Under the pieces are notes generated by a model. It had not been told where the DNA came from, ran no database searches, and saw nothing but the letters and a program-made list of their open reading frames with translations. 64,000 bases of DNA from positions 44,538 through 108,537 of the forward strand of contig CAZDLU010000002.1 of NCBI GenBank assembly GCA_964506725.1, in the 5' to 3' direction. The position numbers and the translations under genes are program-made. Shown piece by piece: positions 15,449-49,442 of the stretch (position 1 is its first letter; each line of letters starts with the position of its first letter). Source of the DNA: an uncultured Rhizobium sp. (GTDB taxonomy: Bacteria > Pseudomonadota > Alphaproteobacteria > Rickettsiales > UBA1997).

Positions 15449-16507
15449 ATGTTAGATTTTTTAGAAAATTCATCGCATTATCAACAAATAGCCTGGGCAA
15501 TAAAAATGTTTATCATAATTTTTATCTCCTTGGTTTTAAGCTATGTGGCAGGCCGCTTGGTTCGGAATTGCGAAAAGAAACTTTCACATAATAAAGCCAT
15601 TTGGGATGATTTATTGCTGCGCTCAATTCGTAAGCCCCTGATAAGCTTAATTTGGATTTTAGGAGTTGCGCTCGCCATCAATACAACAGGCCAGCATATT
15701 CGCGTTGATTTTTATAATTTTGTTTTAATATTTAAAAATCTCGGAATTATTTTTTGTATTGCCTGGTTTATTTGGCGAATTGTTGCCGAATATGAAAAAT
15801 ATTTAACTTCTGAAAAAAGCGACCATCTAGATGTTACAACAGTTGTTGCCATTACTAAATTACTTAAAATTGCCATCTTAATTACCACCGGATTAATGAT
15901 GTTGCAAAATTTCGGTGTCAATATTAACGGAATAATTGCTTTTGGTGGCATCGGTGGTATCGCCGTTGGATTTGCCGCTAAAGATTTACTGGCAAATTTT
16001 TTCGGAGCGTTGGTGATTTTTCTGGATCGACCATTTTCAGTAGGAGATTTTATTCGCTCCCCAGACCGCCAAATTGATGGCGCGGTACAATATATCAGCT
16101 GGCGCTTAACTCATATTTTAACGCCCGATAAAAGACTTTTATATATTCCAAATTCACTTTTTAGCACCATCATTATCGAAAATCTTTCGCGCACAATTAA
16201 CCGCCGCATTCACGAAGACGTAAGATTGCGTTATCAAGACATAAAAAAATCCGCAAAAATAATTGATGAATTGAAAGAATTTTTAACTAATCATAAGGAA
16301 ATAGACAAAACATTACCTATTACCGTGATTATTTCAAAACTTGATGAATATTGCGTAACGCTTGTAGTTGAGGCCTTCACCGGCAATATCTCTATTCCGG
16401 AATATAATGAAATCAAGCAGGAAATTTTGCTTAAAGTTGATGAGGTAATTTTAAAAAACGGCGCTGAAATTGCTTTGCCACGATCAGTGATAAATATTTT
16501 AGATTAA
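15449..16507 (+). CDS. mechanosensitive ion channel, MscS family
   Basis: Multi-TM N-terminus, then ANFFGALVIFLDRPFSVGDFI, which is the MscS beta-domain signature. Confidence 0.85.
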   Translation: MLDFLENSSHYQQIAWAIKMFIIIFISLVLSYVAGRLVRNCEKKLSHNKAIWDDLLLRSIRKPLISLIWILGVALAINTTGQHIRVDFYNFVLIFKNLGIIFCIAWFIWRIVAEYEKYLTSEKSDHLDVTTVVAITKLLKIAILITTGLMMLQNFGVNINGIIAFGGIGGIAVGFAAKDLLANFFGALVIFLDRPFSVGDFIRSPDRQIDGAVQYISWRLTHILTPDKRLLYIPNSLFSTIIIENLSRTINRRIHEDVRLRYQDIKKSAKIIDELKEFLTNHKEIDKTLPITVIISKLDEYCVTLVVEAFTGNISIPEYNEIKQEILLKVDEVILKNGAEIALPRSVINILD

Positions 16508-19500
16508 GAAATTATTTCAACAAATTCTCCTTCTTTTACCAATTCAATTTCTTCAGCATTACAAACATTTTTTAAATCTTCGCCAATTCTGGTTAAATCA
16601 ATTTCGGAATTAACCTTAATTTTTTTCACAATAGTTTTCATCGAAATATTTTTTTCCGATTTAAATTTACGCACCTCGAAAAGCACAGCCAGCGCGGCTT
16701 CGCCGATGTTGTAAGATTTCTGCTCGAATAAATAATTTTCTAATTTCGGCCAATTTCCGCGTGAATTTATTGATTTATTTTGCGCAAATTCTTCAGCAAA
16801 AATTGTTGCATAAATTTCTTCGCAGATATGCGGAATAAAAGGCGCGAAAAGTTTTAGAATTGTGTTTAAGCAAATTCTTAAAGTTAAAATTGCGCTTTGT
16901 TGTTTGGCGATAATTTCTTGTTTTTGCAACTCGCTCAACTCAACTCCCGCAAGCTTTTCCGCCGCAAGTCCGTAAGATCTAACTTTGCAAATTTCCAAAT
17001 AATTATCACAAAAATCTTTCCAGAAAAATTCTTCAATCGCTTCACGCGCACGTGCATATTCAAATTGCGCAAAACTTTCTGTAGCGCGTTTTACCGTTAA
17101 ATACAACTTCGATAAAATCCATAAGTCAGAGACTTCCGTAATGTCGTGCTTCGACAGGCTCAGCATGACATTACTGCTATTACCACTCAATTGTTTAATG
17201 TCACCCTGAGCCTGTCGAAGGGCGACATCACTCAGAGTTTCAAAATTCATCGAAGCAAATTTCGCCGCATTAAATAACTTCGTCACCAACTTCTGCCCAA
17301 TCTTAAAAACTTCCTCTGAATAAGCGGTATCCGCTCCCAAATGCGAAGTCGAAGCCCAATAACGCACAATGTCCGAGCCCTTCTCCTCAATGAGTGCAAC
17401 CGGAGTCACCACATTTCCTTTCGACTTACTCATTTTGGTTTTATCCGCCGCCAAACACCAACCTGAAATCATCAGATTTTTCCACGGAATACTAGGTTCT
17501 TCCCTCTCCTCTTGAGGGAGAGGGTTAGGGTGAGGGGTTGGTTTAGGCAAGCTGTGAAGATAAGCCTTAACAATCGTATAAAACGCCCAAGTACGAATAA
17601 TCTCGTGCGCCTGCGGCCTTAAGTCAGCAGGAAATAATTTATTATGGCGAGCGCGATCAAAGCTGATATCATTACTAATTCCTTTACTTGAAAGTTGCGG
17701 CGAAATCGACGAAGTCGCCCAGGTGTCCATGATGTCGGTTTCAGCCGTAACTTCATCACGCGAGTAACCGAGCGGCAAATCTACATTTGGATCACAGGGC
17801 AATTGCGAAACATCAGCCACTAAAATTTTTCCTTCTTCACCCACTCGCTTCGAATACCAAACCGGAAAATTCACGCCAAAAAATCTTTGGCGAGAAATAC
17901 ACCAATCCCACGATAAGCCGTCAATCCATTGTTCAATGCGCACCAACATATATTGCGGAAACCAATTACATTCCTGCGCTTTCTTTTTTAATTCCTCTTT
18001 TTTATCAAGAATTTTTATAAACCATTGCGGCACAACAAGAATCTCGATCGGCACGCCAGAACGCTCAGCACACTTCACCGCACGCGTAATTTTTTCCTGC
18101 TTAAGTAAAAGACTCGATCTTTCACCCTCCCCTTGAGGGAGGGTCGAACGCTCTGCGTTCGGGGAGGGGTCAGAAGAGTTCAAGTTTAAATAAATATCTT
18201 CCAACACCCCCGAAATATTTTTAAACACATCATTATTCCAAAATCTTAAAACTTTAAACCCAGCACTTTCCAAAAATTCCGTCCTTTTTTTATCATATTC
18301 CACAGCATCTTTTTCATTATGCTGCCCACCATCCAGCTCAATTACTAATTTCTTTTCAAAGCAAACAAAATCAACAATGTAATTTTCAATTGGTTGTTGT
18401 CTGCGGAATTTATAGCCATCTAGTTGTTTATTTTGTAGGTAATGCCATAAAAGTCCTTCGGCATTGGTTTGGTTATCTCTTAAATTTTGTGCATTTTCTA
18501 GAGTTTCTTGAGAGTAAAATCTTTTTGCTTTGAGTGTGTCTTGACCCCTCCCCGATTCGCTTACGCTCATCGACCCTCCCTCAAGGGGAGGGTGATTAGA
18601 TGGAGTGTTTTTTAAGGCTTCAATAATTATCTCCTTACCTTCCTTTAAAGTTTTTCCATTACCTTTATCATCGAATAAAATTTTGGCCTTCTCTATAAAA
18701 TTAGGAGCCATTAATTGACTATTATTCTGAGCATTGTCACAACCAATTTTAGTTATAGATTTCCAATCAAATCTACCATCCTTTCCTATAATAACACGCA
18801 GTTCTAAATCATACTTTTTCCACCATTTTATATCCGTCTCATCACCAAAAGTACAACACATCACCGCGCCCGTTCCTTTATCTAACTGCACTAAATCATC
18901 GGCAATAATTTTTACACGAACACCAAAAAGCGGCGTTACCGCAAATTTTCCCTGCAAATGTTTGTAACGTGAATCTTCCGGATGAACCATCACCGCAACG
19001 CAGGCCGGAAGTAGTTCCGGACGCGTTGTCATTATTTCAATTTTTTCTTCACTTCCTTCAACACCAAACAAAATATAATTCATGGTGCCTTCAACTTCCT
19101 TATCCACCAAATCCGCCTGCGCTAGAGCTGTGCGGTCTGAGATGTCCCAAAAAACCGGCTCGAATTTTTTTTCAACTAAACCTTTATTAAATAAATCAAC
19201 AAAAGAAGCTTGCGAAATTTTTTGTGATTCCGGAGAAATCGTTTGATATTTTTGTTCCCAATCTACAGATAAAGCGATTGAATTAAATAAAGCTTCAAAT
19301 TCTTTTTCCGCTTCATCTACTACTTCGCGACACTTGTTAACAAATGATCCGTGACCGTTTTCATGTTCGTAAACTCCGGCTTTTTTTCCGATAATTTTTT
19401 CTACCAAACGCTCAGTAGGCAAACCATTATCATCAAAGCCCATTGGATAAAAAACATCCTTACCGATCATTCTTTGAAAACGCGCCACAAAATCAGCCTG

Positions 19501-19683
19501 CGTATAAGAAAAAACGTGACCCATGTGCAGAAGTCCTGAAACTGTGGGAGGTGGCGTATCTATTACAAAAGTTTGGTCTTTCGGTAAATCATTTTTCCAA
19601 GCAAAAATCTTTTCATCCTGCCAATATTTTTGCCATTTTTTTTCGATTAGTTTTGTATCTAGTCTGTCTGGTAATTTTGTCAT
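16504..19683 (-). CDS. valS: valine--tRNA ligase (archaeal/Rickettsia type) with three in-frame repeat-derived insertions
   Basis: PPPTVSGLLHMGHVFSY (HIGH region), KMSKSKGNV (KMSKS) and TFGDETD (editing domain). 1059 aa in a single uninterrupted frame. Confidence 0.93.
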   Translation of the reverse strand: MTKLPDRLDTKLIEKKWQKYWQDEKIFAWKNDLPKDQTFVIDTPPPTVSGLLHMGHVFSYTQADFVARFQRMIGKDVFYPMGFDDNGLPTERLVEKIIGKKAGVYEHENGHGSFVNKCREVVDEAEKEFEALFNSIALSVDWEQKYQTISPESQKISQASFVDLFNKGLVEKKFEPVFWDISDRTALAQADLVDKEVEGTMNYILFGVEGSEEKIEIMTTRPELLPACVAVMVHPEDSRYKHLQGKFAVTPLFGVRVKIIADDLVQLDKGTGAVMCCTFGDETDIKWWKKYDLELRVIIGKDGRFDWKSITKIGCDNAQNNSQLMAPNFIEKAKILFDDKGNGKTLKEGKEIIIEALKNTPSNHPPLEGGSMSVSESGRGQDTLKAKRFYSQETLENAQNLRDNQTNAEGLLWHYLQNKQLDGYKFRRQQPIENYIVDFVCFEKKLVIELDGGQHNEKDAVEYDKKRTEFLESAGFKVLRFWNNDVFKNISGVLEDIYLNLNSSDPSPNAERSTLPQGEGERSSLLLKQEKITRAVKCAERSGVPIEILVVPQWFIKILDKKEELKKKAQECNWFPQYMLVRIEQWIDGLSWDWCISRQRFFGVNFPVWYSKRVGEEGKILVADVSQLPCDPNVDLPLGYSRDEVTAETDIMDTWATSSISPQLSSKGISNDISFDRARHNKLFPADLRPQAHEIIRTWAFYTIVKAYLHSLPKPTPHPNPLPQEEREEPSIPWKNLMISGWCLAADKTKMSKSKGNVVTPVALIEEKGSDIVRYWASTSHLGADTAYSEEVFKIGQKLVTKLFNAAKFASMNFETLSDVALRQAQGDIKQLSGNSSNVMLSLSKHDITEVSDLWILSKLYLTVKRATESFAQFEYARAREAIEEFFWKDFCDNYLEICKVRSYGLAAEKLAGVELSELQKQEIIAKQQSAILTLRICLNTILKLFAPFIPHICEEIYATIFAEEFAQNKSINSRGNWPKLENYLFEQKSYNIGEAALAVLFEVRKFKSEKNISMKTIVKKIKVNSEIDLTRIGEDLKNVCNAEEIELVKEGEFVEIIS
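17141..17228. repeat. Family A palindromic element, in-frame inside valS
   Basis: atgtcgtgcttcgacaggctcagcatgacatt ... aatgtcaccctgagcctgtcgaagggcgacat. Encodes ALRQAQGDIKQLSGNSSNVMLSLSKHDI. Confidence 0.85.
17500..17538. repeat. Family B half-element, in-frame inside valS
   Basis: ttccctctcctcttgagggagagggttagggtgaggggt. Encodes PKPTPHPNPLPQEEREEPS. Matches the arms of the intergenic copies at 27655 and 56612. Confidence 0.8.
18122..18595 (-). mobile_element. DUF559 (Vsr-like PD-(D/E)xK) endonuclease cassette with terminal inverted repeats, in-frame inside valS
   Basis: The outer TIR TCACCCTCCCCTTGAGGGAGGGTCGA (18122-18147) has its exact reverse complement at 18570-18595. The inner 12-mers at 18161-18172 and 18542-18553 are also inverted. 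474 nt. Encodes LLWHYL..YKFRRQQPIENYIVDFVCFEKKLVIELDGGQH..VLRFWNNDV. Confidence 0.8.
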
Positions 19684-19703
19684 TTTTGTTTATTTTTTTT
19701 CTA

Positions 19704-19790
19704 AAAAAATCTCGTCATGCTGAGCTTGTCGAAGCATTGTGGAGCCGAACTCATGAATGCTTCGACAAGCTCAGCATGACGAGATTTTTT
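19704..19790. repeat. Family A palindromic element
   Basis: aaaaaatctcgtcatgctgagcttgtcgaagcat ... atgcttcgacaagctcagcatgacgagatttttt. It fills the gap between the bamB stop and the valS start. Confidence 0.9.
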
Positions 19791-21180
19791 ATTTCACCTC
19801 AAGCAAATCCACCACCCATTTTCCCATCGAATGCAAATAAATTTTTCCATTCACAACCACCGGACTATGATGAGTTTTGCTTTTAGTTTTATAAATTTTT
19901 TCAATTTTACCGTCAAAAGGTGATGCCATCAACACATCGCCGGCAACGCTTGAAATCACAAGCTTGTCACCCGCCATCACTACTCCCGCATAAATAATTT
20001 TCGTCTGCGGTTTTTTATCATTTTTATAATTAGGCAATTGCGAAATCCATTTTATGCCGCCGGTTTTTTTATAAACCGCGAGCAATTTATCATCATTATT
20101 AATCACATATAAAAACTCTCCCGCAGCCCAGAAATCAACGATCCCGGCAATTTCTTTTTTCCAAATATAATTACCGTTTTTAACATTAATCGCCATCATC
20201 AAACCACCATTACCAATCGCATAAATTACATCATCTTTTACCAAAGGTGTCGCATCAATATCATTCAAATAAAAATCAGAACTAGTAGCTTTACTTAAAT
20301 TCAAATCCTGTGACCACAAGGCTTCGCCGGTCTTTTTATCAACGCCGTAAATTTCACCGGAAGAATAAGTTGCAATCACCAAATTTTTATAAATTACCGG
20401 ATTGGCTGCGCCAAAAATTGCCGTTGGGCGCGTAACTCCGGCCTGCATCCAGCGCAAATTACCATTTGCCGCGTCAAGTGCGTAAAGCTTGTTATCATTA
20501 GTTGTAACATAAACCGAATTTTCATCGGCAATCGGTGCTGAAACCGGAATCGCCGAAATATCTTTTGTCCAAATTATCTCACCATTATTTGCCTTTGCCG
20601 CCACGATTCTACTGCTTCCGGCAATTGCAAAAATTTTATCATCACCACCTCCGTCATGCTGGGCTTGTCGAAGCATCGACTCATTTTTTTGCAAAAAAAT
20701 CTTCGGCGTTTGATAATTTTTTAAAAACTGACTTGGAAATAAACGCTTCTTAAAAATTCTTTTATCTTGTTTTATATCATAAGCAATTAAATGCCCGGAA
20801 GCGTTCAAAATAAAGGCTTTATCACCATCAAAAATTGGAGTAAAAACAAAACGATCATTAAAATTTCCGCTATAAAAATTCCAGGTAACAGCCGATTTTT
20901 TTAATGCAATTTCTCCGGATTTTTTATGCGAAAAATCCTTAGCAAAATTTTCAATACGCTGATTTTCATAAGCCACCGATCCGCTCCACAAGCTGTTTTC
21001 TACTTGTTTTGGTAGTTTAATTTCAACTTTGGCTAAATCTTCATCAACTTTAATTTTTTCAACAGCAGCAAAAGCCGAAACAGCTTTTGTCTTGTCATAT
21101 TTTTCATCTTCAGCACAAGAAACAAGTAAAAACACAACGGAAAATAAAACTGCGATGTCATGCTTAACCTGTCGAAACAT
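19789..21180 (-). CDS. bamB: outer membrane protein assembly factor BamB (PQQ-like beta-propeller lipoprotein)
   Basis: MFRQVKHDIAVLFSVVFLLVSC (lipobox). Repeated G.lyA.d...G...W blades such as NKLYALDAANGNLRW and GEIYGVDKKTGEALW. The start at 21180 lies inside a Family A repeat, and upstream in-frame ATGs also exist. Confidence 0.8.
   Translation of the reverse strand: MFRQVKHDIAVLFSVVFLLVSCAEDEKYDKTKAVSAFAAVEKIKVDEDLAKVEIKLPKQVENSLWSGSVAYENQRIENFAKDFSHKKSGEIALKKSAVTWNFYSGNFNDRFVFTPIFDGDKAFILNASGHLIAYDIKQDKRIFKKRLFPSQFLKNYQTPKIFLQKNESMLRQAQHDGGGDDKIFAIAGSSRIVAAKANNGEIIWTKDISAIPVSAPIADENSVYVTTNDNKLYALDAANGNLRWMQAGVTRPTAIFGAANPVIYKNLVIATYSSGEIYGVDKKTGEALWSQDLNLSKATSSDFYLNDIDATPLVKDDVIYAIGNGGLMMAINVKNGNYIWKKEIAGIVDFWAAGEFLYVINNDDKLLAVYKKTGGIKWISQLPNYKNDKKPQTKIIYAGVVMAGDKLVISSVAGDVLMASPFDGKIEKIYKTKSKTHHSPVVVNGKIYLHSMGKWVVDLLEVK
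20653..20680. repeat. Family A single hairpin unit, in-frame inside bamB
   Basis: gtcatgctgggcttgtcgaagcatcgac. Encodes ..ESMLRQAQHDGG.. within the propeller region. Confidence 0.8.
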
Positions 21181-21234
21181 GTGTTTGTACTTCGAGCTAA
21201 ACACATGCTTCGACAGGTTCAGCATGACATCGAG
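21153..21234. repeat. Family A palindromic element overlapping the bamB 5' end
   Basis: cgatgtcatgcttaacctgtcgaaacatgtgttt ... aaacacatgcttcgacaggttcagcatgacatcg. Confidence 0.85.
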
Positions 21235-28629: not shown

Positions 28630-28714
28630 CTCTGTGTCTTGCTGAGCTTGTGGTAGATTGTGTGTGTACTCATATGCAATAATCATGCTTCGACAGGCTC
28701 AGCATGACTATGAG
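28630..28714. repeat. Family A palindromic element with a degenerate left arm
   Basis: The right arm tcatgcttcgacaggctcagcatgactatgag is intact. The left arm ctctgtgtcttgctgagcttgtggtag is decayed. Ends 29 nt upstream of the tkt ATG. Confidence 0.7.
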
Positions 28715-39761: not shown

Positions 39762-39800
39762 CTCATAGCCATGCTTCGACAGGCTCAGCATGACTATGAG
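39762..39800. repeat. Family A single hairpin unit
   Basis: ctcatagccatgcttcgacaggctcagcatgactatgag. Ends 21 nt upstream of the yajQ ATG and causes the spurious 5' extension of ORF 39750. Confidence 0.85.
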
Positions 39801-44556: not shown

Positions 44557-44639
44557 CTCAATGTCATGCTGAGCCTGTCGAAGCATGATTCAAGCCTGTA
44601 CCTAAAATCATGCTTCGACAGGCTCAGCATGACATTGAG
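44557..44639. repeat. Family A palindromic element (best-preserved copy)
   Basis: ctcaatgtcatgctgagcctgtcgaagcatga ... atcatgcttcgacaggctcagcatgacattgag. Confidence 0.92.
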
Positions 44640-49352: not shown

Positions 49353-49442
49353 AACTTCGGTGTCATACTGAGCCTGTCGAAGCATGCGTTTAGACTAAGA
49401 GTAAAACACATGCTTCGACAGGCTCAGTATGACACCGAAGTT
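49353..49442. repeat. Family A palindromic element
   Basis: aacttcggtgtcatactgagcctgtcgaagcatgcgttt ... aaacacatgcttcgacaggctcagtatgacaccgaagtt. Ends 14 nt upstream of the nadK ATG. Confidence 0.9.

Follow-up and report, generated by a model that had tools for sequence, protein, structure and literature searches.

The closest described counterparts of the element examined here are the Rickettsia palindromic elements (RPEs), of which RPE-1 to RPE-10 were reportedly described by Ogata et al. in 2000 and 2002, and the bacterial REP sequences, which in the BIMEs of Escherichia coli combine two kinds of hairpin, the Y and Z REPs, into mixed dimers. RPEs are dispersed palindromic repeats of 100 to 150 bp that are abundant in intergenic as well as protein-coding regions, and an RPE-7-like insert is present in PheT throughout Rickettsia (PMC1779305). 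REP dimers are most commonly head-to-head and less often tail-to-tail, with head-to-tail arrangements absent or rare (Di Nocera et al. 2013, PMC3733652). Here we analyze a 64,000-nt stretch of DNA (the window) from the metagenome-assembled genome of an uncultured freshwater alphaproteobacterium (G000; 1.62 Mb, 37% G+C, 51 contigs), in which the valyl-tRNA synthetase gene (valS) carries in frame two hairpin repeats of a dispersed family that we call family A. We consider it highly probable that this feature arose by in-frame insertion of non-autonomous, REP/RPE-like family A hairpins and that it persists in valS as a tolerated passenger.

The valS gene lies on the minus strand at positions 16504 to 19683 and encodes 1,059 aa, as identified from the list of open reading frames (ORFs), the translation, and Pfam. 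Its product is a class I ValRS (tRNA-synt_1, E = 2.8e-76; Anticodon_1, E = 4.4e-29) whose closest solved structure is that of Thermus thermophilus ValRS (1GAX; E = 3e-60); repeat-derived inserts make up ~240 of its residues, and ValRS lengths among congeners range from 811 to 999 aa. An inverted repeat is found at positions 17138 to 17173 and 17196 to 17231 (36-nt arms, 86% complementary, 22 nt between them), and the earlier note, which had reported a two-armed palindrome translated as part of ValRS, gave both arm sequences and the translation exactly. The insert itself spans positions 17143 to 17226 on the minus strand (84 nt; ValRS residues 820 to 847, VALRQAQGD-IKQLSGNSSN-VMLSLSKHD), contains no stop codon in the frame used, and adds 28 residues to the protein. 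Because the peptide ALRQAQGDIKQLSGNSSNVMLSLSKHDI maps to ValRS residues 821 to 848, the element is in frame and lies in the C-terminal quarter of the enzyme.

In coding order, the first hairpin unit (17200 to 17226, minus strand; the right arm of the earlier note) reads GTCGCCCT-TCGACAGGCTC-AGGGTGAC on the mRNA and encodes VALRQAQGD; its plus-strand hairpin, GTCACCCT-GAGCCTGTCGA-AGGGCGAC, has a CCCT-type stem with one A.C mismatch, which is a G.U pair on the mRNA strand. The second unit (17143 to 17169, minus strand; the left arm) reads GTCATGCT-GAGCCTGTCGA-AGCACGAC on the mRNA and GTCGTGCT-TCGACAGGCTC-AGCATGAC on the plus strand, encodes VMLSLSKHD, and has an ATGCT-type stem with one A.C mismatch on the mRNA strand. 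The 30-nt spacer between them (17170 to 17199, minus strand) encodes IKQLSGNSSN. The valS copy thus joins a CCCT-stem hairpin to an ATGCT-stem hairpin in tail-to-tail ("-+") orientation.

The element is a translated copy of a dispersed palindromic family, as the earlier note had proposed, with a census of 223 units at 134 loci in the G000 genome and 8 unit matches within the window against 0.00 expected. Each unit is a 27-nt hairpin composed of an (A/T)GTC lead-in, a stem of 5 to 8 bp, and the 11-nt loop GAGCYTGTCGA, the stem existing in three or more alternative forms that exclude one another and are each fully paired (ATGCT/AGCAT, ACCCT/AGGGT, and ATCCT/AGGAT). Dimers measure 66 to 87 nt (~85 to 100 nt with their ACTC...GAGT flanks) and number 85 in "+-" orientation, 4 in "-+" orientation, and 0 in direct (head-to-tail) orientation; the "+-" dimers are long palindromes with 17- to 21-nt centers and ACTCNNN/NNNGAGT flanks, while most units that seem to be single belong to dimers whose other arm has decayed. 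Across 147 distinct units the stem covaries far more than expected by chance, a check that the earlier note had singled out, and the covariation score was reached by 0 of 500 shuffles. Stem cells were paired in 88% of cases, compared to 79% after shuffling and 30 to 53% in slid controls; the 9-27 pair is U-A in 90 units and C-G in 55, the 10-26 pair is G-C in 80 and C-G in 62, and unpaired cells are almost nil. These numbers do not represent as many independent events; a small number of ancient changes have been passed on to many copies.

Comparison of valS among 17 congeners and 9 other genera of the order shows that the site is occupied sporadically. It is empty in eight congeners (G002, G005, G006, G007, G008, G012, G015, and G018), where the loop reads NFxxLQxxAxITExSDLW and relative to which the G000 loop has 28 extra residues; congeners with a basal ValRS of 811 to 825 aa have no insert here, and genomes without family A also lack the peptide at this position, in line with what the earlier note had expected of ValRS orthologues. 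The sister species G009 carries a homologous insert with the same boundaries (VARRQAQGD-DNANNAHSS-VMLSLSKHD). The ValRS of G001 has a shorter family A insert with reversed hairpin order and a 3-nt spacer, which must have been acquired independently since its sister G007 has an empty site. G003 and G011 have one unrelated repeat at the same spot, and G004 (L024) and G017 (L036), which are nested among empty-site species in the ValRS tree, have a third repeat at the same site (after residue 819) with a family-A-like hairpin layout and the loop GAGCGYAGCGA; this repeat (GTCATTCT-GAGCGTAGCGA-AGAAT, encoding HSERSEESQ) suggests a wider superfamily with the loop pattern GAGC-NNNN-CGA. The pattern of inserts among congeners, taken together with the ValRS tree, indicates five or more separate insertions into this loop, from no fewer than three repeat families.

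The earlier note had taken the paired differences between the two arms as an argument that the hairpin is under selection or templated repair inside the coding region. The differences exist: relative to the ATGCT/AGCAT type, two stem pairs of the right arm are changed on both sides, leaving one A.C mismatch. They are, however, the signature of a large subfamily, the CCCT..AGGG stem being present in 93 of the 223 units (55 to 62 of the 147 distinct rows). The variant seen in the first unit recurs as the right arm of canonical elements (C19:2391 and C23:1459) and in a G001 dimer (L169), and the A.C mismatch variant AGGGCGAC is found in 19 units, where its proper pairing partner is GTCGCCCT in the other arm; the AGCACGAC variant of the second unit is likewise present at C10:16576 and C3:74573. 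The G009 insert has identical hairpin types in identical order, so the arm difference predates the split between G000 and G009. Furthermore, 10 of 12 "-+" dimers in G000, G001, and G009 combined are heterotypic, compared to 9 of 85 "+-" dimers (Fisher p = 4e-7), and a CCCT hairpin beside an ATGCT hairpin is therefore the normal "-+" build. Given this normal make-up, the paired substitutions are subfamily differences that were inherited, and the seemingly compensatory changes mark a preexisting repeat subtype rather than repair within valS.

The structural context is consistent with a permissive site. The insert aligns between T. thermophilus ValRS residues ~594 and ~598, and in an AlphaFold2 model (27 orthologues; mean pLDDT, 70) residues 827 to 844 have a pLDDT below 50, with helices on either side at residues 790 to 814 and 851 to 872 (pLDDT, 76 to 95). 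The modeled loop would join the last helix of the catalytic body to the first helix of the Anticodon_1 (anticodon-binding) bundle, and the inserted peptide is predicted to be disordered. Nor is valS the only coding host: 21 of the 134 family A loci lie in long ORFs (valS and 20 others). Six in-frame hosts are confirmed by Pfam (acetyl-CoA synthetase, PheRS beta, LigA, AlaRS, MnmG, and a second class I synthetase), and Mfd, a P-type ATPase, LigD, and NadE were recognized by eye; single nine-codon units are found within LigA, Mfd, NadE, PheT, and others. Among copies with exact loops, 5.61 of 6 positions are paired in coding copies versus 5.68 in noncoding ones (p = 0.28), and we base no conclusion on this comparison. 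An apparent greater decay of coding copies in a loose scan was rejected, as that scan includes by our own estimate ~70 chance matches and the effect vanishes with exact loops.

We propose that the hairpin serves the propagation of the element itself, probably as single-stranded DNA read by an enzyme; such a role would explain both the family-wide covariation and the invariant loop. Within valS the element would be a tolerated passenger in a permissive loop, without function there, and its sequence would decay slowly, possibly being refreshed at times by gene conversion from the ~130 other loci. Three points weigh against this interpretation. First, no mobilizing enzyme for family A was found among RAYT flanks, bracketed ORFs, or the distribution of Y1_Tnp, and mobility is consequently deduced from the uneven copy number and the empty sites alone. 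Second, the valS pair may have arrived either as a ready-made dimer or as two separate units. Third, a pure passenger does not account for the similarity of the units in G000 and G009 (48 of 54 nt) when the gene as a whole is 73.8% identical and the spacer matches at 15 of 31 positions.

Copy number is indeed patchy. Exact 15-mers containing the loop number 174 in G000, 207 in G011, and 16 to 41 in five other congeners (35 in G014), with few or none in most congeners and 0 among 16 other genera of the same order. Elsewhere, among 201 alphaproteobacterial genomes, no two of the same genus, 36 have the loop, in up to ~100 copies, and a reversed control gave ~0. The motif is also present in many other phyla; the 15-mer alone is no proof of kinship across phyla, as by our own estimate 596 Gb would contain ~1,100 matches by chance, but two adjacent base pairs are paired in 97% and 89% of cases versus 55% and 54% after shuffling, and the cross-phylum matches are therefore real.

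We know of no mobilizing enzyme for a hairpin with this 11-nt loop. The G000 genome contains two RAYT-like Y1_Tnp genes (50 bits each), whose flanks hold GGTTCCAGGTTAC-type and GAGTATACTGTCCCTGGAATTA-type repeats. One, at C2:38171-38797, ~6 kb upstream of the window, has four copies of AAAAAGGTTCCAGGTTACTTT upstream and four inverse copies downstream; the other, at C22:19009-19911, has GAGTATACTGTCCCTGGAATTA-type repeats downstream. These genes and their own repeats are REPtron-like units separate from family A. The copy number of family A does not track Y1_Tnp either, since G011, with 207 copies, has only a borderline match (23.3 bits, at the cutoff) and G014, with 35, has none, and RAYT was rejected as the mobilizer on these grounds. 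DUF559, a Vsr-like nuclease domain, was rejected as well, as tblastn with the DUF559 domain of valS gave 0 matches at 118 hairpin loci of other phyla and the domain is also present in congeners with zero copies of the repeat. Among ORFs bracketed by family A there was no transposase-like candidate, only housekeeping genes lying between copies.

One alternative concerns the mode of entry: the valS palindrome might consist of two solitary 27-nt hairpins, each from a different subfamily, that inserted independently ~30 nt apart in the same permissive loop, with the spacer being native valS sequence. We give this appreciable weight, though less than an even chance. Several features speak for it: spacers are 1 to 9 nt in 7 of 8 "-+" dimers from G001 and G009, compared to 27 to 30 nt here; each valS unit has its own extended stem (TAAT...ATTA); single nine-codon units are known in the other proteins named above; the ValRS loop is a proven hot spot; and the spacer evolves as unconstrained loop sequence. 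Set against this, an intergenic "-+" dimer in G009 (L167) has a spacer of 29 nt, a CCCT unit and an ATGCT unit in "-+" order have the exact appearance of ready-made dimers, and the loop minus its units would be 25 aa, compared to 18 to 21 aa at empty sites. The spacer is either an unusually long dimer linker or a native loop between two single-unit insertions.

Ectopic gene conversion, or correction of one arm by the other, might also keep hairpin units uniform, including those in coding regions. This idea is compatible with the passenger model, and we regard it as tentative. It draws on the comparison of G000 with G009, in which valS is 73.8% identical at the DNA level and 53.6% identical at third codon positions, the two units match at 48 of 54 nt (89%; naive binomial p = 0.006), and the spacer matches at 15 of 31 aligned positions (48%); at the third codon positions of the units, 14 of 18 agree, compared to 54% gene-wide (p = 0.03). 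Since the units are conserved above both gene and spacer, gene conversion or a constraint at the DNA or RNA level has to be entertained, though the comparison involves a single orthologous pair with p ~0.03 at third codon positions. Variants that look private to the G000 insert (AGCACGAC and GTCGCCCT) exist elsewhere in its genome, a further point in favor of conversion. At the AlaRS site, family A stem haplotypes differ among G000, G001, and G253, and the left arm in G253 shows TG>CC on one stem side only, matching the other family haplotype exactly and breaking the hairpin, as from a partial conversion tract; independent insertions at the AlaRS site can nevertheless account for differing haplotypes. 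Of 32 rare variants in the 85 "+-" elements, 4 appear in mirror image on the two arms, an outcome hardly ever expected from independent mutation, but the other 28 are unmirrored. In the first unit of G009, the loop-closing pair and three bases of the loop are gone and have not been corrected. Overall, the divergence data lend weak support to gene conversion and none to selection on pairing inside valS. The broader proposal of templated repair in the earlier note thus retains some backing from the unit similarity and the mirrored variants, while the paired substitutions on which it was built provide no evidence for it.

Selection of the hairpins for a function in valS, either as an mRNA structure that paces translation or stabilizes the transcript or as a useful new ValRS loop, is very improbable. 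The predicted mRNA structure is highly stable (-56.7 kcal/mol, z = -9.7), and conservation at synonymous sites of the units is raised between the two species. Such stability, however, is common to every family A copy, most of which are intergenic; the insert is absent from most congeners and replaced by unrelated repeats at this spot in others; none of the six unit differences between G000 and G009 is compensated; and the peptide is predicted to be disordered. One RNA run (X13) held none of the valS locus. An Rfam search of positions 16000 to 20000 (E ≤ 1) returned a sole match on the element, mir-1781, at 33.9 bits against a cutoff of 68, and this subthreshold match was rejected as a palindrome artefact. 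Finally, a repeat-induced chimera, conceivable in a 51-contig metagenome assembly with an abundant repeat, has almost no probability, as an independent assembly of the source freshwater metagenome yielded a 597-nt contig that spans positions 16966 to 17500 with zero differences and no joint skipping the element, a homologous insert is present in a different species (G009), and the reading frame is intact.

Looking beyond this genus, the pattern NNCU-GAGCYUGUCGA-AGNN may represent an old REP-like superfamily distributed across phyla, an idea that we put forward with reserve. The combination of an invariant loop and a freely varying stem would point to one conserved enzyme, neither RAYT nor DUF559, that reads the loop, and ectopic gene conversion, not selection on host genes, might hold the copies to a uniform sequence, including those translated within essential genes. 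The invariant 11-nt loop with covarying stems in many phyla provides a lead for wider study. The findings also broaden the range of a Rickettsia-type behavior, in which selfish palindromes persist by way of translation, to include an uncultured genus of freshwater Alphaproteobacteria, and the ValRS loop, with at least five independent insertions from three families, offers a natural map of where extra residues are tolerated. A general caution follows as well, in that paired differences between the arms of a palindrome can be inherited subfamily markers rather than in-place compensation.

Other inserts are present in the same gene. At positions 18121 to 18609 (ValRS residues ~359 to 521), valS contains in frame a complete DUF559 domain (Pfam E = 9.9e-43; PDB 3HRL, E = 1e-26), edged by the repeat-derived peptides HPPLEGG... 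and ...LPQGEGE. The same cassette is found at the identical site in G013, short repeats occur there in other congeners, and the position after residue 358 constitutes a second insertion hot spot of valS. A third in-frame insert, SLPKPTPHPNPLPQEERE, at positions 17500 to 17553 (residues ~711 to 728), lies just upstream of KMSKS and occurs in G000 only; the ValRS of G016 has a different 17-aa insert at this site. In AlaRS, family A is present at one position in G001 (L182), G253 (L183), and G000 (L181), which are not mutual closest relatives on the ValRS tree, whereas the position is empty in G009 and G013, and in G012 it has another short tandem repeat (AGCACGA x4); it is another recurrent insertion site.

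Further family A copies are present in the window. A canonical "+-" element with two homotypic arms lies at positions 44563 to 44633 (C2:89100-89170; units at 44563 to 44589 on the plus strand and 44607 to 44633 on the minus strand), and a further "+-" element lies at 49362 to 49433. Units at 21202 to 21228 (C2:65739) and 28682 to 28708 (C2:73219) are, respectively, the first arm of a diverged two-armed copy and one arm of a degraded two-armed copy, and a single hairpin with CTCATA/TATGAG flanks is found at 39768 to 39794 (C2:84305). Elsewhere in the genome (C20:17000-30000), one dimer occupies each intergenic gap almost throughout a run of ~10 housekeeping genes. At C21:18494, C9:44246, C6:14194, and C38:2265, some family A elements are enclosed by the outermost 13 nt of another element (GTCAYYCYGAGCC...GGCTCRGGGTGAC), and it looks as if one copy had inserted into the center of another.

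Set beside known systems, family A most closely recalls two. Like RPEs, its members are short palindromes found both between genes and in frame within housekeeping genes of a small alphaproteobacterial genome, with lineage-specific bursts, inserts in aminoacyl-tRNA synthetases, and predicted surface-loop positions that leave the host protein intact; the valS insert itself is in frame, leaves the ORF open, and has empty sites as its counterpart in congeners, in keeping with RPE insertions at positions that vary among orthologues. The two appear to differ in build, RPEs measuring 100 to 150 bp and family A consisting of 27-nt hairpins with an 11-nt invariant loop and dimers of 66 to 87 nt (~85 to 100 nt with flanks), a comparison made by description only. 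Like REP, BIME, and REPIN sequences, family A is a high-copy 20- to 40-nt hairpin with several stem or loop subtypes and a preference for inverted dimers (PMC3733652), and it shares with REPs and REPINs the organization of a short, imperfect palindrome present in high copy number, mostly as inverted dimers. REP superfamilies also have intragenic copies, including some in tRNA synthetase genes (PMC3733652). The heterotypic "-+" dimers in turn resemble the Y/Z REP pairs of E. coli BIMEs.

Other REP traits are absent or only partly matched. The conserved unpaired GTAG tag is not shared, as GTAGTCA is found in no more than 15 of the 223 units, most often replaced by ATAGTCA, GATGTCA, or AATGTCA as the lead-in, with CGTC rare; and no cognate RAYT gene flanked by family A was found in G000, where both Y1_Tnp genes have other repeats. 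REPs of the CGTC type, among which RPE-4 and RPE-6 are counted, occur mostly in Alphaproteobacteria and lack a transposase of their own; they carry a CGTC (or TGTC/CCTC) tag at one end, an 8- to 9-bp stem, a 4- to 5-nt loop, and a short CCA-like tail (PMC3733652). Family A shares with them the lack of any partner transposase found, the occurrence in Alphaproteobacteria, and the intragenic copies, but not the structure: its loop is 11 nt and it has no CCA tail, while its NGTC lead-in (mostly TGTC/AGTC) makes the presence of a tag arguable. None of the REP-encoded peptides in the supplement of PMC3733652 match LSLSK, FDKL, or LRQAQ, and full-text literature searches with the loop, its variant forms, or the peptides translated from it returned unrelated primers or nothing. 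Correia/NEMIS, ERIC, and other MITEs are likewise small, nonautonomous palindromes of intergenic gaps with stable RNA hairpins, but they have terminal inverted repeats that match an IS transposase as well as target-site duplications, none of which were seen for family A. Family A is thus best filed as a new family of the known REP/RPE kind, its insertion within genes being a behavior already known from Rickettsia.

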